Sequence record: MK327933.1
Direction: 5' to 3' (one strand)
DNA length: 64,000 bases
From: Escherichia phage vB_EcoM_G2285
Within the stretch, counting starts at the first letter, position 1. The number at the start of each line of letters is the position of its first letter. The notes under the pieces were generated by a model. It worked only from the letters and a program-made list of their open reading frames with translations, was not told where the DNA came from and made no database searches. Positions 14,154 to 43,625 of the stretch are shown here, piece after piece. The position numbers and the translations under genes were made by a program.

Positions 14154-14350
14154 TTCTTCACCTTTTTGTTAATCAAACGTTTACGGTATACAACTTTTTC
14201 TTTTGCTTTAAACTTTGACCGAGCTATCTCGGCTTTAGTCCATAGTAATCCAACTTCTTTAGGTTGTAAACCAATTTTTTGAGCAATTTCTACGAATGAA
14301 AATCCCGCCTCATGTAATGTATAAACTTCAACTTCAGCTCTCATAATCAA
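14150..14350 (-). CDS. Hypothetical small basic protein
   Basis: 66 aa ORF overlapping neighbour by ATGA. Confidence 0.5.
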   Translation of the reverse strand: MIMRAEVEVYTLHEAGFSFVEIAQKIGLQPKEVGLLWTKAEIARSKFKAKEKVVYRKRLINKKVKK

Positions 14351-14409
14351 TCCCGTACTATTTGGTTTGTGCCATTATATACATTAATCTCAAGTTGTGT
14401 TTTGTATGC

Positions 14410-14440
14410 TTTAAAAACGAAGAAAGGGGCCGAAGCCCCT
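14410..14440 (-). terminator. Intrinsic terminator after hoc (GGGGC-ttcg-GCCCC plus T-run)
   Basis: Hairpin with tetraloop followed by T-run on minus strand just past the hoc stop. Confidence 0.6.
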
Positions 14441-14445
14441 TACGA

Positions 14446-15576
14446 TTATGGATATGTATAGATGATACCAGTTTCCAAAGCAGTTTTATGGATGATGTAT
14501 CCATTACGTGATTCTTGAACATCAACTTCTGGATAGTCTTTCAACATCTTCTGAAGAGTGTAACGATGCAGGTAGTATTTACTATCCGGATCTTCAGTTT
14601 TCCAATCTTTACCTTCTTCAGTCATTTTTTGTATTTCATCCATAACCCACCAACCGCACCAGATGTAAGCTGAAGTACGATGTGGAAGAGGATGAACATA
14701 AGGTAATTCACCTTCTGGTTCTGGAGCAACTTTATCAGTTACCTGAACTTGACCTTCCGCTGTAATAGTTTTGCTATCATAATCAGTAGCAGTAACAGTA
14801 GCAGTAACTTCAATAGTTTGACTTCCAATAGATGAGGTATCAACGGTATATACATTAGTTGACCCTTCTACAGGAGAAGAATCTTTCTTCCATGAATACG
14901 TAATTTGCGCTTCTTCTGGAGCATCCGTAACATTAGCCGTAAATGTAGCTGAAGCATCTTGCTGAACGTTAATAGAAGGAGGAGTCAATGTAACCTGTGG
15001 ATTCATTGTCTTCTTATTAACCGTTAATGATACTTCATTCGAAGTAACTTCCTTTGCATCATAATCTGTCGCGGTTACTTGGGCTACACATTTAATTCTT
15101 TTTACTCCACTTGTAGTTGGAGTATAGCTAAATGTAGAGTTAGTTTCTCCACCAACCTGTGAATCATCTACATACCATTGATAAGTAGCGTTTGCGCCCG
15201 ATGGCTGCGAAGCTAAAGCGGCAGTAAATTCAATAGCTGTTCCGATTACTCCAGCTGAAGGGCTATTAGGAGTTACGGCTAAGGTAGTCGACTGTGTCTT
15301 ATTTTTAACTGTGATAGTTGTTGTCGCTTCAGCCGTTTCCGGGCCTCCTTCAGAAAGTGTATTTGTTGCAACAACTTTAATTGTTTTTGTTCCAGCAGGT
15401 CCTTTTAACACATAATCAAAAGTTTCTGCCGATCCTACTTGAGGAGCATCGTCTACACTCCATGCATAGGTAATAGTTCCGCCTCCAGTTTCACCACTGG
15501 GTGTAGCAGTAAACTGCTGAGTCTGATCTATAACTCCGGTAGGTGTTTTAGGAGTTATATCAACTGTAAAAGCCAT
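14446..15576 (-). CDS. hoc: Highly immunogenic outer capsid protein Hoc (Ig-like repeats)
   Basis: 376 aa, matches remembered T4 Hoc along its length. Confidence 0.9.
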   Translation of the reverse strand: MAFTVDITPKTPTGVIDQTQQFTATPSGETGGGTITYAWSVDDAPQVGSAETFDYVLKGPAGTKTIKVVATNTLSEGGPETAEATTTITVKNKTQSTTLAVTPNSPSAGVIGTAIEFTAALASQPSGANATYQWYVDDSQVGGETNSTFSYTPTTSGVKRIKCVAQVTATDYDAKEVTSNEVSLTVNKKTMNPQVTLTPPSINVQQDASATFTANVTDAPEEAQITYSWKKDSSPVEGSTNVYTVDTSSIGSQTIEVTATVTATDYDSKTITAEGQVQVTDKVAPEPEGELPYVHPLPHRTSAYIWCGWWVMDEIQKMTEEGKDWKTEDPDSKYYLHRYTLQKMLKDYPEVDVQESRNGYIIHKTALETGIIYTYP

Positions 15577-28901: not shown

Positions 28902-29110
28902 TAATCCACAATCGGAAGCAAAGTACGATAAACTTCAAAATTAGGGCCTTTTTCGTACCCATTAACGTTATCTACGAAAACCCGATACGAATTTTCATTA
29001 GGAAAATCTAATATAATCTGAGAGCAAGAGGTGGAAACATCTCCACCATCCTTCTTAGCTACAATAACTGTTTCTAAATAAGCTTTCATTATAAACCTGT
29101 CTGGGACCAC
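28901..29110 (-). CDS. Hypothetical protein (alt.1-like)
   Basis: 69 aa ORF between gene 30 and alt. Confidence 0.45.
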   Translation of the reverse strand: MVPDRFIMKAYLETVIVAKKDGGDVSTSCSQIILDFPNENSYRVFVDNVNGYEKGPNFEVYRTLLPIVD

Positions 29111-30582
29111 GGTCCAAATACGTCTTCAAACGAATCCGCTTCTGTTTTATCAAAACGGAACCCTTTAATAATTGGAAGGAAAATACCTACAGTACCTTCA
29201 CGGCCTTTAGAATGAACCCAACCATTACATTCACAATCAGCGATACGTCCAATTAATTTACCTTCACGAGCTTCGGTCATTAATCGTTCACGGTCTAAAT
29301 CATGACGCTCGTCTAAAGGAATAAGAACCTTTACACCGTCAACTGTTTTATGAGTTGTATCTTTAAAACCTGAACCACAATCGGTTGTAATACGACGACA
29401 ACGTGATACGAGTTCGACACCACCTAATTTGTTAGGGTCTTTAGAGTGTTCATAGTATCCTACAACTTCTAAAGCGATATCAATAACTTCTTTAAATTTA
29501 ATTAGGTTCTTAGAGCGTTTGTTTTCCCAGTATGAATCACGGTTTTTAAGGATAATACCTTCAAGACCTTGGTCAACATATTTTTTATAAACCACTTTAG
29601 CTTCATCAAGATTACGAACTAACTGGTTTTCGATAGGTTCAATTCGTTTAAAGCCTTCAGCCATATTTTCAAGAGCAGCAAAACGAACATCGTATTTCTG
29701 ACCTTTAATTTTGCCATCAGAATAGACTTCATCTAAAGGAACATAGTCCCAGGCTTGAAGAACCATACCTTCCGCTTCTTTAGGAGAAATAGTCCCTTGA
29801 AGAGATTTATTTGCTAAACCATTTGAAGTGCTACGGTCTGCAACTTGCACTTCTTCGGATTCTTCATTATCACCAAATAAGAACGACAGGTCATTTCCTG
29901 AGCTCACAGCCTTTTTAATATCGAATGAATGATAAACTAATTCACCGTCGATTAAAACCCCATTAGGGTGTCTTTCACGAGCTTCTTTAGTCATTTCCAT
30001 TAGTTCATCCGCTAATAGAGTAAGACCATGATATTCGTTGCCGGCACGAGAAAAGAATTGAACACCATCATCGCGAACTTCAGCGAAACAACGAGCACCA
30101 TCTGCTTTTAATTGGGCAAATGCAGGCCATTTAATATTTTTAGTAATCAATTTCTCATCATATGCAGATGCTAACATCTGTGGTTGCAATTGAATAAGTC
30201 CAGGCCACACCTTATTCGCTATAGACACTGAAGCACCTACTTCAAGGTCGCGCATCATTACACGACGAAGGACTTCTACATCATCAGGTTTACCATCAGC
30301 GATATAACCCATGAGCTCTTTAATTGCAGCATTACCAGTGAGTTTACGAGTGGCTAATGTGAACTCAATAAAATCCAACATGGCATCTAATTCAAGAAGA
30401 CCATACGCTTGAGACCTTTCACCTGGTCCTGGCCATTTCTTAATATAATACTGGATACCACGTGCATATGTTAAACGATACACACGTTCAAGTAATTTGT
30501 TGTCCTTATTTTTCTTAAGGATTTCCTGTTTTGTTTTAGTAGAACCGATCGCAGCTATTTGGTTTAAAATATCTAAAATCAT
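29089..30582 (-). CDS. 30: ATP-dependent DNA ligase gp30
   Basis: 497 aa; adenylation lysine motif KADGAR; matches remembered T4 ligase. Confidence 0.95.
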   Translation of the reverse strand: MILDILNQIAAIGSTKTKQEILKKNKDNKLLERVYRLTYARGIQYYIKKWPGPGERSQAYGLLELDAMLDFIEFTLATRKLTGNAAIKELMGYIADGKPDDVEVLRRVMMRDLEVGASVSIANKVWPGLIQLQPQMLASAYDEKLITKNIKWPAFAQLKADGARCFAEVRDDGVQFFSRAGNEYHGLTLLADELMEMTKEARERHPNGVLIDGELVYHSFDIKKAVSSGNDLSFLFGDNEESEEVQVADRSTSNGLANKSLQGTISPKEAEGMVLQAWDYVPLDEVYSDGKIKGQKYDVRFAALENMAEGFKRIEPIENQLVRNLDEAKVVYKKYVDQGLEGIILKNRDSYWENKRSKNLIKFKEVIDIALEVVGYYEHSKDPNKLGGVELVSRCRRITTDCGSGFKDTTHKTVDGVKVLIPLDERHDLDRERLMTEAREGKLIGRIADCECNGWVHSKGREGTVGIFLPIIKGFRFDKTEADSFEDVFGPWSQTGL

Positions 30583-30848
30583 TTGATGTCCTCGATTTTG
30601 GTTACGGTTCTATTATAAGCCACTTCATCTAGAAGCGATTTCAGCGTTTTCTGATAAGTGGTAATCCATTTACCGAGACCTTCAACATAGTATTCTGAAA
30701 TGTAGATGAACCCTTGTTCAACACACTCTTTAAATATTTCTGCGTCTTTTACTGAACGAAACAATGGCCGGTCTCGAAAGAACATGTTAACGTGACCGTA
30801 GTCACGCGTTGTGTTTTTGCCATCTGTAATATCATGAACTACAAACAT
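30579..30848 (-). CDS. Hypothetical protein (30.1-like)
   Basis: 89 aa ORF overlapping the gene 30 start. Confidence 0.5.
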   Translation of the reverse strand: MFVVHDITDGKNTTRDYGHVNMFFRDRPLFRSVKDAEIFKECVEQGFIYISEYYVEGLGKWITTYQKTLKSLLDEVAYNRTVTKIEDIK

Positions 30849-30857
30849 AATTAACCC

Positions 30858-31046
30858 TTAACAATTTATAGACCAAGTCCATTTAGACGAATCTAAAGGA
30901 AAGTTTTGAATCGTCCACCACGGCTGCATATCAGTTGGTCCTGGGGTTCGCCAGGTATATGGAGTACGTGTTGTCGAGGGGCCACCAATTTGATTAGGCC
31001 ATGCACCTGGACTTGTTGCACCAGATTCTTTAAGCAAATCCGCCAA
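30858..31046 (-). CDS. Putative 62-codon Trp/Pro-rich ORF in frame with the upstream HAD-like gene across a single UGA (doubtful)
   Basis: TTG-initiated track ORF; first codon directly abuts the UGA stop of the upstream ORF in the same frame; GC-rich and compositionally atypical. Confidence 0.25.
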   Translation of the reverse strand: MADLLKESGATSPGAWPNQIGGPSTTRTPYTWRTPGPTDMQPWWTIQNFPLDSSKWTWSINC

Positions 31047-31682
31047 TCATTTTAAAAGGTCTTCACGATCTGAATCTGAATTATGCTCAGGTGGAACCAA
31101 ACGAGATTCAATATCATCCCACGTGTGTACACGTTGTGCAGTACGAGGAATGGCATCACGTTCACCACGGGCCAACCAATAAATCGGTACATTGAGAATT
31201 TCTGCCGCATGGTCACAGTGATGAGCTAAATCGTCAACGTAACAAATTACGTTATATTTTGTTTTAGCTAGTTCGAATAATTGTTCCTTTGACGAATCAT
31301 GACCACACATCATTACTTCAGAAAAGGCACCTGGGAACAAAGCATTCAAATTAAATTGTCTATTCAATCGAGCATCAATTGAATCACCTAGCGCCGTCAC
31401 GGCTACAAAATTATAGTCTTCTTTTAGTTTATTGATAACTCGAAGAGCATCTGAATAAGGCGCTAAGTAACGAATAAAATCAGAGCGATTATATTTTTCT
31501 ATTAATTGTTTACCAAGGTTATCGTCGGTATTGAATAGTTTACCAGGAGAAATAAATTTTTCATCCTGAATCATTTTTAAAATATGTTCTAATGGAAGAT
31601 TATATTTTTGGGCAAAATAAGGAAGTCCAGATTGCCAGCTTAAACATACACCATCAATATCAGTCAAAATAGTAGGCTTCAT
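31047..31682 (-). CDS. HAD-superfamily hydrolase-like protein (30.2 position; possible nucleotidase)
   Basis: 211 aa; N-terminal DIDGV motif and later YVDDL acidic motif. Confidence 0.6.
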   Translation of the reverse strand: MKPTILTDIDGVCLSWQSGLPYFAQKYNLPLEHILKMIQDEKFISPGKLFNTDDNLGKQLIEKYNRSDFIRYLAPYSDALRVINKLKEDYNFVAVTALGDSIDARLNRQFNLNALFPGAFSEVMMCGHDSSKEQLFELAKTKYNVICYVDDLAHHCDHAAEILNVPIYWLARGERDAIPRTAQRVHTWDDIESRLVPPEHNSDSDREDLLK

Positions 31683-32146
31683 AAAGAGTCTCTTAATAGG
31701 TTTAACACATCAATAAATTCAGCTTCGGTTAGTATTGTATCATCTTTTGTTAGACCACTGGCCATGCTGTGCTTCAAAATTTTTCCTTTAGAGGCTTGTA
31801 AGGCATCACGAAACCCCTTGTTTTGGATCGCGGCTTCAAAATACGCATTTGTGTATAATTCTTTCCACGCTTCGGAGTATCTTGAAAACGGAACTCCTAA
31901 CCAGAAGAGAGTCCCACGGTCCTGAGCTCTTGCATAAGACCTTCCAGCTTGCTGTGCGGCCAGTCCTGACAGCCCAAATATACGTCTTTGTTGTTCAACA
32001 TTTTTCACCTTACATCCTTGGAGAAATCCTTCAAGACCTCCGAATTGAATACCATCCATAACAAAAGGCCATTGAGCAAAGTTACTTAATGCACACGACG
32101 GCCACTTGAAATTACTTCTTATTTCTAATTCAGACATCTTTAACAC
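31679..32146 (-). CDS. NADAR/YbiA-like domain protein (30.3 position)
   Basis: 155 aa; LSNFAQWPFVMDG...EGFLQGCK resembles the E. coli YbiA N-terminal signature FSNFAAWPIKVDG...EHYFQAQK. Confidence 0.55.
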   Translation of the reverse strand: MLKMSELEIRSNFKWPSCALSNFAQWPFVMDGIQFGGLEGFLQGCKVKNVEQQRRIFGLSGLAAQQAGRSYARAQDRGTLFWLGVPFSRYSEAWKELYTNAYFEAAIQNKGFRDALQASKGKILKHSMASGLTKDDTILTEAEFIDVLNLLRDSL

Positions 32147-32348
32147 TTATAATTTCAACATCAGCCCAATGACCGTATCCAGGTATACGGTCTTCGATAG
32201 ATAAATTTCTGACATTTTTAGGCATTTTAATTGACGTAACGTATGGTTCTAAACGGTTTTCCGCGTAATATGGAAAAACGTCGGTTACACGATAAGTAAC
32301 TTCAATCATTTCCGTACCAAACAATTTCTGGATTAATTTATTCAACAT
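32130..32348 (-). CDS. Hypothetical protein
   Basis: 72 aa ORF; start overlaps the end of the upstream -1 frame. Confidence 0.45.
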   Translation of the reverse strand: MLNKLIQKLFGTEMIEVTYRVTDVFPYYAENRLEPYVTSIKMPKNVRNLSIEDRIPGYGHWADVEIISVKDV

Positions 32349-32351
32349 GTT

Positions 32352-32576
32352 TCAACCCTTTAATAGGAGATAACTCTTTACCCATACGTATGTCAGAAGT
32401 CCCATCAACCCATTGAACAGCATACGCTTCATTGACAATTCCAGCGGCGGTTTTAAATTCATATACTGCTCAATTTCACATACTGAACCATTTTTATGTT
32501 TCCATAAGCAAATCGTATCAATAGAACCTGCGATACCGTTAGAAACATATTTGCGTTCGAAGTTGGTGTAGTTCAT
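32352..32576 (-). CDS. Hypothetical protein; possible -1 frameshift at the U_UUA_AAA heptamer 32451-32457
   Basis: 74 aa zero-frame ORF with a hydrophobic tail; the -1 frame opens at the heptamer and runs 37 codons into a TAATG overlap with the next gene. Confidence 0.4.
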   Translation of the reverse strand: MNYTNFERKYVSNGIAGSIDTICLWKHKNGSVCEIEQYMNLKPPLELSMKRMLFNGLMGLLTYVWVKSYLLLKG

Positions 32577-32675
32577 TTTATTCTCCAGTTGTTTTATTGA
32601 TTAGGTGGTACAAGTCTATAGTAACACATCCTACAGGAGAGTAAACATCTTTTTTAAACTTTTTCTGCCCTAAAC

Positions 32676-32701
32676 GCACAAAAGGGAGACCGAAGTCTCC
32701 C
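32676..32701 (-). terminator. Intrinsic terminator (GGGAGAC-ttcg-GTCTCCC plus T-run)
   Basis: Perfect hairpin and T-run on minus strand just past the 59-aa ORF stop. Confidence 0.65.
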
Positions 32702-32706
32702 TAAAA

Positions 32707-32886
32707 TTATGCAACAACCTTTCCAAAACGAGAAGCATCATCTCGAAGAACTGCACGTGCTCTGCGCATGATCTTCTCAACTGTTTGATTAATACGATAG
32801 TTCGACCCACGCTTGTATCCAGCGCGTTTAGAGGTACCATCAACTTTCTTTTCAACTGCTTTCTTTGCTTTAGCTTGTTTTGCCAT
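32707..32886 (-). CDS. Small Lys/Arg-rich protein (59 aa)
   Basis: Hand-translated MAKQAKAKKAVEKKVDGTSKRAGYKRG...; below track cutoff; Shine-Dalgarno AAAGAG, ends at the terminator. Confidence 0.45.
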   Translation of the reverse strand: MAKQAKAKKAVEKKVDGTSKRAGYKRGSNYRINQTVEKIMRRARAVLRDDASRFGKVVA

Positions 32887-33148
32887 TATAAATTCTCTTT
32901 AAATGAAAATGCAGGACTTATTGACATTGCCTGCGCAAGCCCTCAAGGGGAACATAGGTTTTGGATATTTAACGACAGGATAACCATAAACCTGTCATCA
33001 TACCAACCACGACTTAGACAGATAACCTTTTCTGACGCGTGATAGTACAAAATACATTCAAGAGGTACACCGTAAAACTGCCGTGGTCTTAAAACTATAA
33101 TGATTCGCAAATCATTAATCAGACAGTTCGACGGCTCCTCGATTTAAC

Positions 33149-33397
33149 TTACTTCAGGGTAATAACAAAATGACGTACTGCTTTACGAGCTGCAGAAGCC
33201 AAAGGCTTAGCATATTTCAGTTCATCTTTTGCTTCCAGTTCAGAGGCCAAAGCTGCCTGTACCGGGTTCAGATGTTTGAAATAACGCAGGATTTCCAGTG
33301 CTTCGGCTTCAACATCAATCGACGCGCCGTAGTTTTCGTGACCGTTATTCCATGCGTTTCGTTGCAGTTCAAGAGCGTGTTGTAATTGTTTAATCAT
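33149..33397 (-). CDS. rIII: rIII lysis inhibition accessory protein
   Basis: 82 aa, near-identical to remembered T4 rIII. Confidence 0.9.
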   Translation of the reverse strand: MIKQLQHALELQRNAWNNGHENYGASIDVEAEALEILRYFKHLNPVQAALASELEAKDELKYAKPLASAARKAVRHFVITLK

Positions 33398-33521
33398 TTT
33401 AAATTCTCAATTCGAGATAATATTTAGTAGCCACGTTCGTCTGAATTTCACCTTCTTTCGACAAGTCTCTCAGTTGTAGGCTACCGCTTAGAAGAGTGTT
33501 CTCTTCATATAGTTATTTATA

Positions 33522-33854
33522 TCACTTATAAAGACACGGAATAGCTTTATAGTGGCATGTTACGAATTTCTGTTTAATTTCTTTAGGTTGTTTAAGTCCC
33601 AAAGCCACAAATGGATGTGGAACATTTCGAATTTGTCCAACTGGTAGTGGAGTCAAATCACCGACTTCAACAAAACCTTCAGGAACATCAGGACCCACAG
33701 AATGAACTACACATAGTTCAGGAACTTCACCTTGAACACGTTTACCAATCACAAGTCCTGATTCGGTAACTTCTTCATCACCTGCTTGAGCGGGTTCAGA
33801 AACCAGAATGACATATTCACCAACAGCACGAATTGGGAGTTGTACTTCAGACAT
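33522..33854 (-). CDS. 31: Co-chaperonin gp31 (GroES analogue)
   Basis: 110 aa, matches remembered T4 gp31. Confidence 0.9.
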
Positions 33855-33884
33855 CTTATTTCCTTGTTGTTTGACGATAGATTA

Positions 33885-33910
33885 ATAATACCATACTATT
33901 CGTAAAGCAT
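33885..33910 (-). promoter_or_regulatory. Middle promoter for gene 31 (MotA box ATGCTTTAC plus TATTAT)
   Basis: MotA-box-like element about 11 nt upstream of the -10. Confidence 0.4.
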
Positions 33911-33911
33911 A

Positions 33912-34220
33912 TTACATAAGAAGCAAACGTTCTACCGGAGTACCATCAACCGAAATTACTTTATCAAGGCGGAAAGAACGCCACTGACCTAACTTGGTAT
34001 CGAATGCTCGAACTGATTCACGAGGTTCAGAACGAACTTCTGTTGCCGGATTGTTATTTTCATATTTGACTTCAAGTTCATCGCGGGAGGCAAACATCGT
34101 ACGAACATCACCGTTAGCCTTTTCAAATACAACACAATGAACGCCTACAGACAGAATAGTTTTAATACGTTCACGAAGAACCATAGTTTCTTGTTCAGTT
34201 AAAATCATATTATTCACCAC
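33912..34220 (-). CDS. Hypothetical protein (31.1-like)
   Basis: 102 aa ORF. Confidence 0.5.
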   Translation of the reverse strand: MVNNMILTEQETMVLRERIKTILSVGVHCVVFEKANGDVRTMFASRDELEVKYENNNPATEVRSEPRESVRAFDTKLGQWRSFRLDKVISVDGTPVERLLLM

Positions 34221-34791
34221 AAAAGTTTCGAATTTGTTCCCAATTCAGAGAACGAAGATTATTACGAGAGTACTGAATTACTTCAATACCAGCTTGTTTA
34301 AGAATGTCTGCCCAATTTTCAGGAGACCGGTCATATAATTCTGCATATACAACCTTTTTAATGCCTGACTGTGTGATAGCTTTAGTGCAATCAGGACATG
34401 GAGAAAGTGTCGTATACAACGTAGCACCTTCAATAGAATTACCTTTACGAGCTGCAAACAAAATTGCATTCAATTCAGCATGGATTTCGTTATTAGCAGA
34501 CCATACACTATGAGCAGCCCGATGTTCTTTAGCCAAAACAAAATTATCTGCCCGTCCAAATGCTGTAGTGCCTTCTTTATGTCCAGCAACGATGTCCGGG
34601 CTTGGTTTATTCTTCAACCAGCCGTTTTCGGATGCATGTTCGCAACAGTTTGTACCACCTGAAGGAGAGCCATTATAACCTGTAGAAATAATGCGTCCAT
34701 CTTTTTCAATGACGGCACCAACTTTCCATGAACAACATTTTGATTCTTGAGAAATCAAATAAGCAATTTGAAGATATGTGCTAGCTTTCAT
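34210..34791 (-). CDS. cd: dCMP deaminase (Cd)
   Basis: 193 aa; zinc-binding HAE and PCxxC motifs; T4 Cd-like. Confidence 0.9.
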   Translation of the reverse strand: MKASTYLQIAYLISQESKCCSWKVGAVIEKDGRIISTGYNGSPSGGTNCCEHASENGWLKNKPSPDIVAGHKEGTTAFGRADNFVLAKEHRAAHSVWSANNEIHAELNAILFAARKGNSIEGATLYTTLSPCPDCTKAITQSGIKKVVYAELYDRSPENWADILKQAGIEVIQYSRNNLRSLNWEQIRNFCGE

Positions 34792-35783
34792 TATTGAACC
34801 TTATTAATATAAGTTAACAGCTCTTTAGTTTGTTCCCAACTGATGCACGCATCGGTAACGGAAACGCCATAGGACATATTATCAGAAATTTTTTGATTTC
34901 CTTCATGTAGGAATGATTCTATCATAATTCCTTTGACCAAATCATTAGCTGCTAAATTTTTACCAATACCAATTTGATTGCTATAATGCCCAGCAGCGTT
35001 TGCATGGCTACAGTCAACCATTACATAATGATTCAGACCTACTGCACTTGCTTTGTTAGAAGCTTCTTGAATATCAGAAGAATGATAGTTCGGGCCGTTG
35101 GTCCCGCCACGCAATACGATATGCGTATTCTGATTACCTTCAGCTTCAACAATGCCTACAGTACCATCGACGTCCATACCCATATACCGATGAGGCCGGG
35201 CGGCACTATACATCGCGTCTGTAGCTACTTTAATAGAACCATTGGTCGCGTTCTTGAAGCCTACGCACATCGGTAGACCTGAAGCAATTTCACGATGTGT
35301 CTGACTTTCAGTCGTACGGGCGCCAATAGCAACCCATGAGAAAATACCAGAAAGATACTTAATCGTGAATGGGTCTAATACTTCAGTTGCTAACGGAAGT
35401 CCCATACGTAGAAGTTTACGACACAATGTTCGTGCAACTATAAGACCGTGGTTCATATCAAAACTTCCGTCAAGATATGGATCATTTACAAGACCTTTCC
35501 AACCTACGGTAGTTCGAGGCTTTTCAAAATAAACGCGCATCACTAACAGAACATTAGGAAGACGAGTTTGAAGTTCAGCCAGACGTTTGCCGTATTCAAC
35601 AGCAGCAATAGGGTCATGAATTGAACAAGGACCTACAACAATAAGTTTGCGTGGGTCTTCACCGTTCATAATCGAATTAACTTGTTCGCGATGAGAAGCC
35701 ACTTGTGATGCGTAAGCTTCCGACAAAGGAATAATCTCAGCCAGTTCTTTTGGAGAAATAAGTTTTCTGACGACAGGTAACAT
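34791..35783 (-). CDS. 3-deoxy-D-arabino-heptulosonate-7-phosphate (DAHP) synthase, class I (AroG/AroF-like)
   Basis: 330 aa; GPCSIHD, MRVYFEKPRTTVGWKGL, IGARTTESQ, GFKN, LRGG, CSHAN, EGNQ, TDACISWE motifs; stop overlaps the cd start (TAATG). Confidence 0.85.
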   Translation of the reverse strand: MLPVVRKLISPKELAEIIPLSEAYASQVASHREQVNSIMNGEDPRKLIVVGPCSIHDPIAAVEYGKRLAELQTRLPNVLLVMRVYFEKPRTTVGWKGLVNDPYLDGSFDMNHGLIVARTLCRKLLRMGLPLATEVLDPFTIKYLSGIFSWVAIGARTTESQTHREIASGLPMCVGFKNATNGSIKVATDAMYSAARPHRYMGMDVDGTVGIVEAEGNQNTHIVLRGGTNGPNYHSSDIQEASNKASAVGLNHYVMVDCSHANAAGHYSNQIGIGKNLAANDLVKGIMIESFLHEGNQKISDNMSYGVSVTDACISWEQTKELLTYINKVQ

Positions 35784-35791
35784 AACAATCC

Positions 35792-35980
35792 TTAGTAGAT
35801 ATAAACAGATTCTGATTCAACAATACCTTTAACCGGATTAGACAGGCTAAGTTGGTAGTACTCAGATTTATGACCATTCTCGATAGTAATGAGATAGCTC
35901 TCATTATAGTGTTCCGTATACTCGAGTTGCTTCAACAAGACCATCACTGCATAATTTAAGATTAGTAATTTGGTCACCAT
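35792..35980 (-). CDS. Hypothetical protein; overlaps previous ORF by 77 nt in the +1 frame
   Basis: 62 aa ORF; may be a separate gene or the frameshifted continuation of 35904..36140. Confidence 0.3.
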   Translation of the reverse strand: MVTKLLILNYAVMVLLKQLEYTEHYNESYLITIENGHKSEYYQLSLSNPVKGIVESESVYIY

Positions 35981-36140
35981 CTTTAGGATTAACGATTATG
36001 AGAAAAGAACGTGGAGATTCTTGAATAACTCGTAATGTTGCATCTTGGAAACGTTCAGACACTTTATTGATGAGTGCTTGAGCAAATTCTTTTACTTTAA
36101 TCTGAAATTCGTGTACTGTAATTGGGTTTTCACTTAGCAT
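35904..36140 (-). CDS. Hypothetical protein
   Basis: 78 aa ORF with early promoter upstream. Confidence 0.4.
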   Translation of the reverse strand: MLSENPITVHEFQIKVKEFAQALINKVSERFQDATLRVIQESPRSFLIIVNPKDGDQITNLKLCSDGLVEATRVYGTL

Positions 36141-36200
36141 TTCTATTTCCTCATTTGTTGGTAGAGTTATAGTATCACAACTCCACCATGTTGTAAACCA

Positions 36201-36482
36201 TTAAATTGCTTTGCATTCAATTTTTTGTGTACCGAAATTGATATCACATTGGATAACTAAATCGCCGTCAAGATCAAATACCACGATGACGTGTGCAGAC
36301 CCAGGGAGAAGAGTAATAGCAATAGAATCTACTTGGTCTGGGAGCAAAGCATTGAGTACATGAGTTAGTTGAGCATGAACTCTGAGTTCGGCCGCATTAT
36401 CAAGCACTTCAAACATATTATTAGCAATAATCTGACTGAAGACTACCTTTACAATTTCAGAATAAGTAGGGAACAGTTTCAT
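36201..36482 (-). CDS. Hypothetical protein (cd.x-like)
   Basis: 93 aa ORF. Confidence 0.45.
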   Translation of the reverse strand: MKLFPTYSEIVKVVFSQIIANNMFEVLDNAAELRVHAQLTHVLNALLPDQVDSIAITLLPGSAHVIVVFDLDGDLVIQCDINFGTQKIECKAI

Positions 36483-36489
36483 AATTACC

Positions 36490-36714
36490 TCAGTGTACAG
36501 TATTTACTTTAACTCGAACAACAAATCGCTCGGTTGGTTCACCTACAGGAACAAACTCTACATGATATTCGCCTTTGTAACGAGTATTCAGGTCGTTACG
36601 AATTTCGGTAAGCTTGTTGATTAATGTAGAACTCATATTAAGTCCCACTAGTTTACGAAGCATTTTGTATGCTTCATCTTCGATTTCATGATGTTTATCG
36701 TACATAGTTTTCAT
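36490..36714 (-). CDS. Hypothetical protein (cd.x-like)
   Basis: 74 aa ORF. Confidence 0.45.
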   Translation of the reverse strand: MKTMYDKHHEIEDEAYKMLRKLVGLNMSSTLINKLTEIRNDLNTRYKGEYHVEFVPVGEPTERFVVRVKVNTVH

Positions 36715-36886
36715 TTAACCATTCAATTGCCTGGTCGACGTTATCAAATATACCGCCGTCCAAACGTTCTTCATGCTCATAGTCCAGCACATCAATACCG
36801 AACTGTCCATTTACTAAAGGCCAGGCAACAAACAAATATTCTTTATGCTGTTCGATGGCCTCAATCACTTCATATAATCGTTTCAT
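36695..36886 (-). CDS. Hypothetical protein (cd.x-like)
   Basis: 63 aa ORF, ends adjacent to the pseT start. Confidence 0.45.
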   Translation of the reverse strand: MKRLYEVIEAIEQHKEYLFVAWPLVNGQFGIDVLDYEHEERLDGGIFDNVDQAIEWLNENYVR

Positions 36887-37973
<1,087 letters not shown>

Positions 37974-37974
<1 letters not shown>

Positions 37975-38273
37975 TATTTTATTCCTAAGAAAGTTTCAAG
38001 AATACGAATGTTATGCTCGCGCCGGTCTTTATTAATTTCAGCAACGTTTTTATTAATTGACGTACTTCTAACGTTTGAAGAAATAAATTTAATCATATGA
38101 CTTTTGAGTTGTTGCAAATCCAACCCTTTTTCTTTAGCAGCTTTACGAAGAGCTTTACCTGCTTCATCTAGTGCCTTTGCTGCATCTTTGTCATAATTGA
38201 CAAGTGACATTCCACGGCAGATATCAATATACTCATCAGACCGTTTGATGTAATTCTCTAGTAATGTTTTCAT
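37974..38273 (-). CDS. Hypothetical protein
   Basis: 99 aa ORF. Confidence 0.45.
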
Positions 38274-38300
38274 TTAGATTTCCTCAATTATCCATAGGAG

Positions 38301-38329
38301 CATTATACTCTGCTCCCGAGAGTTTGTAA
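38301..38329 (-). promoter_or_regulatory. Early sigma70-like promoter (TTTACA-N17-TATAAT)
   Basis: Consensus-like -35 and perfect -10 upstream of the 99-aa ORF. Confidence 0.45.
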
Positions 38330-38330
38330 A

Positions 38331-38555
38331 CTATTTTACTAAAGATTCAATATACTCATGAAGAGCTTTAGTCGCTACTGCCCACTTATTCTGATATTCA
38401 TTTTTCAGATTAGCACGAGACTGAACTAACAAGCGGTCATTAGTCGGAGGCAAAGATTCTAATCGTTGAATCTGTCGCCCATAAATCATAGCCGCCATTT
38501 CAGATTCATAGATAAGCCCTTTAACGTGTTCAAGCTGTTCTTTAGTCATTGGCAT
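38331..38555 (-). CDS. Hypothetical protein
   Basis: 74 aa ORF. Confidence 0.4.
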   Translation of the reverse strand: MPMTKEQLEHVKGLIYESEMAAMIYGRQIQRLESLPPTNDRLLVQSRANLKNEYQNKWAVATKALHEYIESLVK

Positions 38556-38836
38556 TTTTCCTCTTTTAAACCACTACGATAATAACATAACATAGTCTTC
38601 TGGTCATGTACATATCTTTTTACGTCGTTTAACCAGATACGAAATTCTTGAGAGTCTTCAAATGGCATTCCAACCCACGGATTACCATCAATAACCTTTA
38701 CTTGCCATTTCTGGTTGTATTCGGAAATAGGCGTAGGCCATGAAGGATGTAAAGTTTCTTTAGGGCTTACTGGCACATCCTGAGTACATCCAACTAGGAG
38801 ACCAATAGATAATACAACTGCGGTTAATTTAATCAT
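38546..38836 (-). CDS. Putative o-spanin (outer-membrane lipoprotein; pseT.2 position)
   Basis: 96 aa; signal peptide with lipobox LLVGC; adjacent to i-spanin-like ORF. Confidence 0.6.
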   Translation of the reverse strand: MIKLTAVVLSIGLLVGCTQDVPVSPKETLHPSWPTPISEYNQKWQVKVIDGNPWVGMPFEDSQEFRIWLNDVKRYVHDQKTMLCYYRSGLKEEKCQ

Positions 38837-39189
38837 TCTGAGAGCTTCCTGAGGTCTTCTGCAAAGGAATCGAAGGACCTGTTGATTTGTTTTTCAACCA
38901 ATCCTGGTTTACTTGCCACCACGTTCTTCTTCTTCGAATCCTTACGGAGCTTTTCATTTTCGGCCTTAAGTTGGTCAACTAAAACACGGTTCTTATAAGT
39001 CATTTCTTCGATTGACTGATATTGAACCTTGAAGTCGTCTAATACTTTAGCATTGTTTTTAGCAGTCTCTTTAACAGAAGCCAATTCAGTATTCAGCGAA
39101 TCGACTTTATGGTTCAGAAATGCTATTGTTACAGTAGCAACAACCGCAAAAGCTGCCACTACAATATATGATGCATTTACTTTAAGCAT
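38833..39189 (-). CDS. Putative i-spanin (N-terminal transmembrane helix plus coiled coil; pseT.3 position)
   Basis: 118 aa; hydrophobic N-terminal helix followed by charged coiled-coil-like region. Confidence 0.6.
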   Translation of the reverse strand: MLKVNASYIVVAAFAVVATVTIAFLNHKVDSLNTELASVKETAKNNAKVLDDFKVQYQSIEEMTYKNRVLVDQLKAENEKLRKDSKKKNVVASKPGLVEKQINRSFDSFAEDLRKLSE

Positions 39190-39677
39190 GTTTGAATAAT
39201 CTCAATGATTTCGTCTCGGGATAATCCATTGATAAGAACGGTTTTCAAACCATCACACTGGATTTTGTACGATTCAAACAATACACACAACTCTTCTGCT
39301 GTATGATACGGACTTGAAATTCCGAGGCGGTTGAATTTGTCGGTAAGAGGGTCGCAAATAATGTAGAATTTTATACCTGCGATATGTACGTTTGGTTGAC
39401 TAATATTAATGAACACATTAGCGTCATATTTAGTCAAATTGTTTTGAAGAAATTCTACCATGGCATTAACTGCTTCCGGCATAGCTTCGCGTTTCTCTTC
39501 AGCGTATCGGGTGGAATACTCTTTTTGTTTTACTTTCTTTTTAAGATTTTTGGCCAGTGTAACACGTAGGTCAGTAAGATAACCAACTGCACGTCCTTTC
39601 TTAAAGACCCGGATTCCGTCAGTTGTGTCTCCAAAAGCGGTTACGACCATATCGTTAGTAATCAATTGCATATTCAT
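39177..39677 (-). CDS. alc: Alc-like protein (start placed at internal MNMQL)
   Basis: Position between the spanin pair and rnlA as in T4; internal start gives about 166 aa. Confidence 0.5.
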   Translation of the reverse strand: MNMQLITNDMVVTAFGDTTDGIRVFKKGRAVGYLTDLRVTLAKNLKKKVKQKEYSTRYAEEKREAMPEAVNAMVEFLQNNLTKYDANVFINISQPNVHIAGIKFYIICDPLTDKFNRLGISSPYHTAEELCVLFESYKIQCDGLKTVLINGLSRDEIIEIIQTCLK

Positions 39678-39739
39678 AATTTTCTCCTCGTGTTGTTGAT
39701 AAAAGCCATAGTAACACCATCCTTGGTGTTTGTAAACCA

Positions 39740-40873
<1,134 letters not shown>

Positions 40874-41357: not shown

Positions 41358-41860
41358 TTAGAAATATTTTTTGTACGAATTGATTACATTTTGGTCTACA
41401 TCATTATCAATTTGTGCGACAAGATAAGAACTGATTTCAACTTCTTGTGGGGCTGCTTGAACCAAATCAGAGTTCAAATACTCACGAATCCATGGAATAG
41501 GATGACGAGTTGATACGTCTTTAAGAGGACATGGCAGACCACAACTACGCATACGAGACACGGTAAGATAATCCACAAATTCACTTAGGATTTTAACATT
41601 TAGACCTGGAAGAGCACCATCTTTAAACAAGTGTTCAGCCCATTCTTTTTCTTGAGCGTTAACTTCCATGAAAATATCAACTGCTTCTTGTTCACACTCT
41701 TGAGCAATTTTGACCCATTCATCACCGTCTTCGCCATCTTGTAAAGCACGAATAATATATTGAGTGCCCTTGAGGTGGAGCTGTTCATCACGAGCAATGA
41801 ACTTCATAATCTTGGCATTACCTTCCATGATTTCCATATTCTTGTGGAAGTTAAAGGTAC
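41358..41860 (-). CDS. nrdB: Ribonucleotide reductase small subunit NrdB, exon 2
   Basis: Continuation ...TFNFHKNMEIMEGNAKIMKFIARDE...; 3' splice site after an omega G; exon lengths sum to 393 codons. Confidence 0.7.
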
Positions 41861-42949
41861 CGTATGTTCGATTGAGCTCGCTAATTCTCAACCCGTTCTC
41901 TTATGAACTGCTGCATGTTACCATGCAGTCCAGACTATATCACAATCCCGGAGGGATTCTCCCCATTTCGAGTCGCTTGACCCTACGTCCGAAGACTAGT
42001 CGTTGAACCTTGTTTTGCAATTGTCGCCGTGCCATCGTTTATATGTTGATGGTGATAAATCTTTCTTATCACAATATGGACAATTCAATTGAATTCTATT
42101 TGGATTTAATTTACATCTGTCATTATGTTTTAGATAAAATCCAGGACCTTTACCAATGTGACCACAGAAATCACATGTGATTTCTTTTTGTGCAGGATGG
42201 GTCCCGTTCTTAACCATTTCTAATGTTTTTGCTGATGTTCTTTTCTTATGGTCTTCTGATAAGAAATGATGTGAACCGTCATTTACCCGTTTTGATTGAG
42301 TTTCTGACTGCATTTTACCACCGCAAAATACATGAGTACCTTCTTTTATAGCTGCAATATTGCGTTCTTTAACTTTTGCAATATGCTCAGCTTGTTGAAA
42401 ATTATGTATACCTAATGCAACTCTATTTAAATTAGATTTACGCTGTATTTCACCATCTAAAAGATGAAATGTACCATTTTCTATCTTAGATTTAATAGAG
42501 GCAATATTTTTAGCTCGTACTTCAGGGATATTAAAAATCTGGATTTCTCTAGATTTTGCGGCTTTAGAAGCTAATTCAGAAATTTCTTCAGGAGAATATT
42601 TCATTCTAAGCTTTATAGCATGACAAGCCTGGTAATCTTTTTGAGCTAAATGTATATCATAATGTTCCTGTATAGAAAGGCACATCAAATTATCTAAATC
42701 ATTATTTTCACGGTTACCGTCTTTATGATGCATTTCGTATGTTCTTCCATCAGAATCTTTAGGTATAGGTCCGTTAGCATCTATCCAAATTTTTCTATAG
42801 TTCAATTGTGCATCCTCTTAAAAGTATAATCATATTTATATTATACTAATTAAAGGTGCAAGCAAAACCTTGGCTGCTAGTTTTCCATAAAGGACTTTCC
42901 AGCAATTAAAGGAGTTTTCGATAAACGTTACCGTTTAAAGGCGCATTTT
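41861..42949 (-). mobile_element. Group I self-splicing intron in nrdB, carrying I-TevIII (1089 nt)
   Basis: Interrupts the conserved NrdB motif FYVSFA|C; 5' exon ends in U, intron begins UAA and ends in G; boundaries inferred by hand. Confidence 0.7.
41996..42805 (-). CDS. I-TevIII HNH homing endonuclease (intact, 269 aa)
   Basis: HNH motif HHKDGNRENNDLDNL plus C-terminal Cys-rich zinc-finger-like region; within the nrdB intron. Confidence 0.85.
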   Translation of the reverse strand: MNYRKIWIDANGPIPKDSDGRTYEMHHKDGNRENNDLDNLMCLSIQEHYDIHLAQKDYQACHAIKLRMKYSPEEISELASKAAKSREIQIFNIPEVRAKNIASIKSKIENGTFHLLDGEIQRKSNLNRVALGIHNFQQAEHIAKVKERNIAAIKEGTHVFCGGKMQSETQSKRVNDGSHHFLSEDHKKRTSAKTLEMVKNGTHPAQKEITCDFCGHIGKGPGFYLKHNDRCKLNPNRIQLNCPYCDKKDLSPSTYKRWHGDNCKTRFND

Positions 42950-43625
42950 ACGCAAAAGATACATAAAAACGAATAGCTTCCAATGCGTTGATTACATGGA
43001 GGCAAAGGTAAAGAGATTTCATTAAAGCACGTTTAGCTTCGGCTTCTTGTTTAATAGCTCGGTTTAAACGAAAGACGGCATCAGGAGATTCTTTAGCTAG
43101 TTCTACAAATTCTTTAGCGTTTTCCCAATAACGAGCTTTAACCAGAACATCATCATAATATCGTCCGATAGATTCGGCACGCTTCATAATAGCTTCATCT
43201 AATACAATCTCATCAAACACCTTCGATGGATCTGTATAAAGATTTCGCATAATATGAGTATATGAACGAGAGTGAATAGTTTCACTGAAAGTCCATGTAG
43301 CAACCCATGTATCTAATGAAGGGTCTGAAAGCAATGACATAAGTACCGCAGATGGTGCTCTACCTTGGATAGAATCTAATAATGATTGATACTTAAGGTT
43401 GTTGGTAAAGATGTCCTGTTGGAACTGTGGAAGCTTATTAAACTGGGCCGAATCCAACATCAAGTTTACTTCCTCGGGACGCCAAAAGAACGAGAGCTGC
43501 CGCTCAATGAGTTCTTCAAATACTCGATGTCGTTGAATATCATATCGAGCTAAACCTAATCCAGAACCAAAGAACATCGGTTCATTCAAAACATTGACTT
43601 GTTGTGTGTTAAAAACTGTACTCAT
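42950..43625 (-). CDS. nrdB: Ribonucleotide reductase small subunit NrdB, exon 1
   Basis: 225 codons ending ...ALEAIRFYVSFA; the apparent stop is the UAA that begins the intron. Confidence 0.75.

Follow-up and report, generated by a model that had tools for sequence, protein, structure and literature searches.

The lig-rnlA block of Escherichia phage vB_EcoM_G2285 is very probably a Mosigvirus version of the T4 hyperplastic region

What does the dense run of small genes between lig and rnlA of Escherichia phage vB_EcoM_G2285 encode, and is it chiefly a set of host-takeover and anti-defence factors, as a preliminary description of this DNA proposed? The run occupies positions 30579-39189 of a 64,000 nucleotide (nt) stretch of record MK327933.1, which was analysed at its full length and is called the window throughout. 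Here we show that this block is the RB69-like (Mosigvirus) counterpart of the T4 segment that has gene 30 (lig) at one end and alc and rnlA at the other. The reading we favour, with a probability of roughly 85%, is that it represents the ordinary and already known T4-type hyperplastic region, composed of independent genes and not one system. It would thus be the Mosigvirus version of a series of genes that act independently and are for the most part non-essential, and its content would sort into four groups: genes that have been characterised, two enzymes with a predictable activity (30.2 and a 3-deoxy-D-arabinoheptulosonate 7-phosphate (DAHP) synthase), eleven small proteins, and loci that have decayed in this isolate.

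The identity of the block is established by its relatives and by its layout. A megablast search with positions 30579-39189 matched 876 phage records, in 147 of which a single match covered at least 80% of the query, and the best relatives were the Mosigviruses NicPhage, G53, JK45, APCEc01 and mogra, at 96-98% DNA identity. The block is flanked by lig (29089-30582) at one end and by alc (39177-39740), followed by rnlA (39740-40864), at the other. All of its genes lie on the minus strand and are arranged head-to-tail with ATGA-type overlaps being common; the junctions between them measure from -20 to +9 nt, save for six gaps of 57-262 nt, which bears out the tight packing described previously. 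Gene order and strand are shared with the T4 gene 30-alc region, 18 of the window ORFs (open reading frames) having T4 orthologues at 44-97% identity, and the 30.x, cd.x and pseT.x names that had been proposed were upheld by blastp against T4. No Rfam match was found in the block or in the whole window.

The block contains 21 intact genes and two degraded loci. The size range of 55-130 amino acids (aa) given in the preliminary description holds for 16 of the intact genes, but the other five are larger, namely 30.2 (211 aa, or 274 aa in full), 30.3 (152 aa), cd (193 aa), the DAHP synthase gene (330 aa) and pseT (299 aa). For every intact ORF there was a match in Pfam or among the PHROG families (E 1e-27 to 1e-181), and the ratio of non-synonymous to synonymous divergence (dN/dS) of the small ORFs is 0.03-0.33 wherever dS could be estimated (Nei-Gojobori method, against T4 or PEi20 orthologues); for comparison, the values for cd and pseT are 0.16 and 0.11. 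Because of these family matches and low dN/dS ratios we conclude that the intact small ORFs are real genes and not chance frames. Shine-Dalgarno-like sequences and coupled start/stop overlaps are also present on the block ORFs. The figure of about 20 ORFs between lig and rnlA therefore describes real, minus-strand, family-matched genes, with the exception of two ORFs (the 30.7'-30.5' fusion and that at 35792-35980) which proved to be wreckage.

A more substantial revision concerns function. It had been stated that, beyond rIII, gene 31, cd, pseT and the spanin genes, nothing in the block has a recognisable function, and this is wrong for three genes: 30.3, 30.2 and the DAHP synthase gene. Gene 30.3 (31679-32137, minus strand) encodes the NADAR DNA ADP-ribosylglycohydrolase AdfN at its full length of 152 aa, and falls in the Pfam Phage_30_3 family PF08010 (E 4.8e-69; 231 bits, cutoff 36). 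AdfN of T4 (gp30.3) is an orphan DarG1-like NADAR antitoxin that strips DarT1-added ADP-ribose off phage DNA and is required and also suffices for DarTG1 resistance; it needs the catalytic residues Glu36 and Lys43 along with an intact C-terminal helix, and may in addition need a further T-even protein (Nat Commun 2025, PMC11825919). The window protein is identical to T4 AdfN at 148 of 152 positions (97%), with all four substitutions being conservative, and it keeps E36, K43 and the C-terminal helix. Its gene occupies the same genomic position as in T4, upstream of and overlapping 30.2. RB69, in contrast, is sensitive to DarTG1, its AdfN allele being truncated by a one-base insertion (PMC11825919), and the resulting 137 aa protein has lost the C-terminal helix and is inactive, whereas the window allele encodes all 152 aa including the helix. 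An active AdfN would be expected to take ADP-ribose off guanine in DNA and to restore plating on DarTG1 hosts, and we predict that vB_EcoM_G2285, unlike RB69, would be resistant to DarTG1. The anti-DarTG1 function of 30.3 was itself already published in 2025 and is no discovery of the present analysis. T4 also has an internal out-of-frame gene, 30.3', which has no counterpart among the minus-strand ORFs of at least 35 aa inside 30.3 (31679-32146); since the window's 30.3 holds no such ORF, conservation of 30.3' as a gene is improbable.

The DAHP synthase gene (34791-35783, minus strand) went unnoticed in the preliminary description. It sits at the position taken by cd.1 in T4, overlaps cd by 1 nt and encodes a type I-alpha enzyme of 330 aa resembling AroF, AroG and AroH, matching PF00793 (E 2e-75, score 253 against a cutoff of 25.5) and TIGR00034 (428.8 against a cutoff of 173.2). 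Its best solved relative is E. coli AroF (6agm, E 5e-105), and it scores below the NCBIfam cutoffs that are specific to AroG and to AroH. The gene is found in 212 phage records, and Kanagawavirus, Marfavirus and Bragavirus have it at this locus too. When the three E. coli enzymes (AroG, AroF and AroH, to which the window enzyme is 47-57% identical) were aligned with four phage enzymes from four genera, the residues C61, H268, E302, D326, K97, R92, R99, R165, K186 and R234 (AroG numbering) were invariant. We take the first four of these to be metal ligands and the other six to be substrate residues, and on this assignment the metal- and substrate-binding residues are all kept.

The same is not true of the aromatic amino-acid feedback site. 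The E. coli enzymes are feedback-regulated, whereas the window enzyme is altered both at the inhibitor site and at the N-terminus: the phage proteins start about 10 residues late, so that AroG residues D6, D7 and I10 of the N-terminal arm are missing, and P150I, Q151K and S180P are found in the DAHP synthases of all four phage genera. In AroG, P150L and S180F are feedback-resistant variants, Q151 is involved in inhibition by phenylalanine, and Q151 and S180 contact the inhibitor (PMC9529685). Because the N-terminal arm has been lost and P150, Q151 and S180 have been replaced, we infer that the phage DAHP synthase escapes feedback inhibition. It would then probably drive phosphoenolpyruvate and erythrose-4-phosphate into the shikimate pathway whatever the levels of the aromatic amino acids. 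In the searchable literature we found annotation-level mentions of phage DAHP synthases and no functional study of one. RB69, the type Mosigvirus, is without the gene (positions 14252-14503 of the RB69 locus, L006, compared with 34791-35783 of the window), whereas most sequenced Mosigviruses have it. Since RB69 lacks DAHP synthase and has a truncated AdfN, its version of the block is not typical of the genus.

The third gene, 30.2 (30858-31682, minus strand), has a start codon that overlaps the 30.3 stop codon (ATGA) and encodes a protein 82% identical to its T4 orthologue by blastp. The motifs and modelled fold of this protein identify it as a phosphatase of the HAD superfamily. Across 40 homologues, which are found in T4-like phages only, the HAD motif residues D8, D10 and K132 are invariant, and T96 and D150-D151 show a conservation of 90% or more. 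An AlphaFold (AF2) model, with a predicted local distance difference test (pLDDT) score of 92.8, has a Rossmannoid core and a cap domain. A Foldseek search with this model gave 96 PDB matches at E≤1e-3, of which the 50 top-ranked matches listed all have the HAD fold. Its neighbours are HAD subfamily I hydrolases, at a TM-score of about 0.6, and include the 5'(3')-deoxyribonucleotidases (PDB 2jao, 2i7d and 1q92; probability 1.0), with which 30.2 shares the Rossmann-like core, the helical cap and the DxD/T/K/DD motifs even though it is only 11-17% identical to them in sequence. The Pfam HAD_2 match lies below the cutoff (E 0.01), and no significant match to the PDB was obtained by sequence or profile. 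The protein would be a Mg-dependent HAD phosphatase and possibly a (deoxy)nucleotidase.

In this isolate 30.2 is interrupted. A CGA codon has become an opal codon, TGA, at 31047-31049 and ends the protein at 211 aa, compared with 274 aa in relatives such as mogra and NicPhage; no second case of this opal codon was found in 50,697 phage records or in IMG/VR contigs. The segment that has been lost is a hypervariable Trp/Pro-rich C-terminal tail of about 60 (62) aa, and many natural 30.2 homologues are tail-less proteins of some 200-220 aa. Because the tail is hypervariable and missing from so many natural homologues, the catalytic domain is probably intact despite the opal codon.

The remaining functional assignments confirm genes long familiar from T4, all of them, like every gene described below, on the minus strand. 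They comprise rIII (33149-33397; lysis-inhibition accessory protein; phrog_1457, 4e-43; 93% identical to T4 RIII), gene 31 (33522-33854; GroES-like co-chaperonin; Pfam Cpn10; 96% identical to T4 gp31), cd (34210-34791; dCMP deaminase; 72% identical to T4 Cd, with NCBIfam deaminase matches) and pseT (36887-37786; polynucleotide kinase/3'-phosphatase; 73% identical to T4 PseT, with NCBIfam kinase and HAD-IIIA matches). Cd supplies deoxyuridine monophosphate, PseT together with RnlA repairs tRNA that has been cut by PrrC, gp31 replaces GroES, and RIII has its role in lysis, as have the two spanins. The spanins are encoded by pseT.2 (38546-38836; o-spanin; phrog_812, 1e-44; 71% identical to T4) and pseT.3 (38833-39189; i-spanin; phrog_739, 3e-33; 48% identical to T4), which overlap by 4 nt. 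They have the features of a two-component system, in that pseT.3 has an N-terminal transmembrane helix (maximum Kyte-Doolittle hydropathy 2.36 over 19 residues) and the adjacent pseT.2 a lipobox cysteine (LLVGC, residues 13-17). The spanin role of T4 pseT.3 has reportedly been discussed in earlier literature.

Eleven ORFs are left without an assigned function, so that, as the preliminary description anticipated, housekeeping annotations do not account for the whole block. Six of them, of the 30.x and cd.x series, are also found in T4: 30.1 (30579-30848; 89 aa; DUF3045, PF11243 8e-27, phrog_2054; 58% identical to T4, dN/dS 0.11), 30.4 (32130-32348; 72 aa; phrog_2042, 1e-34; 51%), 30.9 (32707-32886; 59 aa; phrog_1427, 2e-30; isoelectric point 11.1 and net charge +13), cd.2 (35904-36140; DUF7320, PF24005 7e-35; 65%), cd.3 (36201-36482; DUF7355, PF24051 4e-34; 78%, dN/dS 0.04) and cd.4 (36695-36886; 63 aa, acidic with a net charge of -9; phrog_2360; 52%). 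To these are added pseT.1 (38331-38555; 74 aa; phrog_2347; 84% identical to T4) and 31.1, described below. The identity of 30.9 to its T4 counterpart is 95% over the 40 residues aligned by blastp and 93% in the full codon alignment. The other three are homologues of RB69 genes: RB69ORF227c (36490-36714; 74 aa; phrog_3609, 5e-40), present in RB69, PEi20 and PhiKpNIH-6 and not in T4; RB69ORF230c (37783-37974; 63 aa; phrog_8683, 3e-42), with homologues in 241 phage records (Mosigvirus and T4-like phages of Klebsiella and Serratia) and not at the T4 locus; and RB69ORF231c (37974-38273; 99 aa, basic; phrog_2364, 4e-49), with homologues next to pseT in 708 phage records, T2 and RB27 among them, and not in T4. 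Taken together the sequence comparisons indicate that purifying selection acts on these eleven small and conserved proteins. The idea that cd.2, cd.3 and the RB69ORF227c homologue form a tandem paralogue family was rejected as unsupported, with profile-profile probabilities of no more than 28% on thin alignments.

The eleventh small protein, 31.1 (33912-34208; 44% identical to T4), is a stand-alone WYL_2 domain with a Sm/SH3-like beta-barrel (PF10902, 1e-9; score 38.6 against a cutoff of 26.7). WYL_2 is a very large family: at E≤1e-3 it has 3503 representative clusters, most of which are single-domain proteins 80-110 aa in length, and domain fusions gave no clue to function, the multi-domain relatives containing only repeated WYL_2. 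An AF2 model of 31.1 (pLDDT 83) has five strands plus helices, and in Foldseek it gave weak matches (E 0.04-0.3) to the WYL domains of BrxR, CapW, PafBC and DriD and to Hfq. Neither 31.1 nor 30.3 had a significant match in the PDB by sequence or profile. With the Pfam threshold relaxed to E≤1, and with NCBIfam, the ORFs of unassigned function gave chance-level matches only, and PADLOC defence-system models gave no match at E≤0.01 to the ten of these ORFs that were searched. Literature searches on the function of pseT.1 or the cd.x genes returned annotation-level mentions only, one of them being swamped by noise of the 'CD.3' type.

The preliminary description held that the content of such blocks varies between relatives, and the comparison of presence and absence over seven loci from six genera agrees with this. 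The differences fall mainly within 30.4-30.9, cd-cd.2, cd.3-pseT and pseT-pseT.1, and genes are gained or lost independently, PEi20 and PhiKpNIH-6 for example being without 30.3 yet having 30.2. Compared with T4, the window lacks 30.5, 30.6, 30.8, 31.2, cd.1 and cd.5 and has only a fragment of 30.7, whereas T4 is without the DAHP synthase gene, in place of which it has cd.1, and without the RB69ORF227c, RB69ORF230c and RB69ORF231c homologues. Compared with the closest Mosigviruses, the window is without about 1.5 kb of the 30.5-30.8 interval and has the additional opal codon in 30.2. Divergence from T4 is itself uneven: across 30.3-31 (31679-33854) dS is 0.2-0.8 (0.23-0.75) and the proteins are 93-97% identical, compared with a dS of 1.5-3.2 in the flanks. 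Because synonymous divergence from T4 in 30.3-31 is so far below that of the flanks, the sequences suggest past recombination in this segment between the Tequatrovirus (T4) and Mosigvirus (RB69) lineages. A laboratory chimera of RB69 and T4 was considered and rejected, as natural Mosigviruses share the sequence at 97-98% identity.

Two loci of the block are degraded. At 32352-32576 an out-of-frame 30.7'-30.5' fusion, in which PF06919 matches residues 1-40 only, marks a deletion scar. Its breakpoints, mapped against mogra and PTE-Eco05, place the junction at 32459/32460, where the 30.7 reading frame gives way, after its first 39 codons, to the tail of 30.5 with a 2-nt microhomology; the head of 30.5, all of 30.6 and most of 30.7 have been taken out, and no second case of the junction was found in 50,697 phage records or IMG/VR contigs. 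Judged from this junction, 30.5-30.7 were lost through illegitimate deletion. Gene 30.8 is absent from the window and likewise from PTE-Eco05. That 30.5-30.8 and the tail of 30.2 have been lost in nature indicates that the phage can dispense with them. The second locus, a 62 aa ORF at 35792-35980 with a cd.2-like C-terminus, a PF24005 match below the cutoff (E 6.5e-6) and a match to phrog_15876, is probably the remnant of a duplicated cd.2-like gene beside the DAHP synthase gene; in one relative a 41 aa ORF is annotated at this place.

How the block may be transcribed can be read in outline from its signals. The early promoters attributed to the ORFs find some support when the T4-type early motif (TT[TG]AC-N17-19-TAnnnT) is scanned for. 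The minus strand has six matches, compared with 1.95 ± 1.24 in shuffled sequence, and five of the six lie in short intergenic gaps (at 38330, 36197, 33906, 33076 and 32645). Because the plus strand also has six matches, it is the placement of the motif that is informative and not the number. The best sigma70/T4 early promoter-like site is at 38302-38330 (TTTACA-17-TATAAT, 11 of 12 positions). A second T4-type site lies in the gap between cd.3 and cd.2 (36169-36197), where a T4 early promoter is annotated at the homologous place, and a third, with an A-rich stretch upstream, lies at 32618-32645. A MotA-box-like site with a -10 element precedes gene 31 (33909-33879), and a candidate late-promoter box, TATAAATA, precedes rIII (33514-33521). 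Directly after the 30.9 stop codon the sequence can form the strong hairpin of an intrinsic terminator, AGGGAGAC-TTCG-GTCTCCCT, with a T-run behind it (32677-32702), and in PhAPEC2 a terminator is annotated at this place. Leftward transcription would thus start from a few early and middle promoters located in intergenic gaps, and the few-base overlaps of many neighbouring genes would be compatible with translational coupling.

How well does the reading of the block as a T4-type region of independent genes withstand the alternatives? Several points weigh against it. That the genes act independently is assumed by extension from T4 genetics. None of the searches with the eleven small ORFs gave a functional lead, either for or against host interaction. 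Generic sigma70-like sites in the block number 28, compared with 27.4 ± 4.9 in shuffled sequence, so that this part of the promoter claim stands at chance level. The predicted feedback insensitivity of DAHP synthase is based on residue substitutions, and the best structural neighbours of 30.2 also include HAD enzymes of the dehalogenase type. The expectation that anti-defence factors reside in this block is vindicated for one gene, 30.3/AdfN (PMC11825919).

This gene is also an argument for the alternative that the block is chiefly an anti-defence or host-takeover island, in which most of the uncharacterised small ORFs inhibit host immunity or other host functions. AdfN is a proven counter-defence enzyme, and PseT, Alc and, just outside the block, RnlA also counter host functions, as is established for T4 and reflected in its annotation. 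Gene content differs between genera as would be expected of arms-race genes, and the fold of 31.1 resembles the WYL sensor, or ligand-binding, domains of BrxR and CapW, although the match is weak. However, metabolic, repair, chaperone and lysis genes are mixed in throughout, several members being plainly of these kinds, so the block is not a dedicated island. Many of the small ORFs are under strong purifying and not diversifying selection (dN/dS 0.04-0.33), and none of them matched a characterised anti-defence protein in Pfam, PHROGs or solved structures. Furthermore, 30.9 and 31.1 have matches in all seven loci compared (by tblastn for 30.9, whose Bragavirus match spans only 37% of the protein), and a conserved role would fit this distribution as well as an arms race. 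We therefore regard a predominantly anti-defence block as possible but doubtful.

A narrower proposal of this kind combines three of the proteins: 31.1 and 30.2 would be counter-defence parts, acting alongside a deregulated DAHP synthase that rewires host shikimate flux. In such a scheme 31.1 could serve as a decoy target for, or soak up, the single-stranded DNA or nucleotide signals of the WYL regulators BrxR and CapW, and 30.2 could fill the place of the further T-even protein on which AdfN may depend. We consider this joint scheme unlikely.

It is also improbable that the block forms one nucleotide-metabolism module, with Cd, PseT, the HAD phosphatase, the NADAR protein and DAHP synthase (feeding folate) as its enzymes and the small ORFs as their subunits or regulators. 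Chorismate is the precursor of the p-aminobenzoate moiety of folate, which T-even phages need for the synthesis of deoxythymidine monophosphate and hydroxymethyl-dCMP, and the DAHP synthase gene is joined to cd by its 1-nt overlap in four genera. Moreover, Cd, PseT and 30.2, with its nucleotidase-like fold, all act or would act on nucleotides or nucleic acids. Yet the supposed members vary independently, DAHP synthase being absent from RB69 and T4 and 30.3 from phages that retain 30.2, while lysis and chaperone genes are interspersed and this isolate tolerates the loss of four genes. Least credible of all is the suggestion that AT-rich DNA left many of the small frames open by chance and that these are not genes. 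Two ORFs, the 30.7'-30.5' fusion and the cd.2-like remnant, are indeed wreckage, and 30.3' of T4 finds no counterpart among minus-strand ORFs of at least 35 aa, but all remaining ORFs fall into phage protein families (E 1e-27 or better), are conserved across genera with dN/dS well below 1, and have Shine-Dalgarno-like sequences and coupled start/stop overlaps.

Outside the block, we observed that nrdB (41361-43625, minus strand) is split, with residues 1-225 encoded at 43625-42951 and residues 227-392 at 41858-41361. Between the two parts lies a sequence of about 1.09 kb that carries a 269 aa ORF (41996-42805) with an HNH_3 endonuclease domain and has the appearance of an I-TevIII-type intron or homing-endonuclease insertion; no Rfam group I intron model matched it at the gathering score.

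Our analysis refines the annotation of the lig-rnlA block and leaves the current understanding of such regions unchanged. The most useful new inferences are that the phage DAHP synthase is probably deregulated, that 30.2 is a HAD phosphatase, and that vB_EcoM_G2285 is predicted to resist DarTG1. The accessory blocks of T-even phages still hold genes to which no function has been assigned, and one such gene, 30.3/AdfN, proved to be a counter-defence factor. The eleven small genes of this block, which are under purifying selection, are good and inexpensive targets for defence-panel and toxicity screens.

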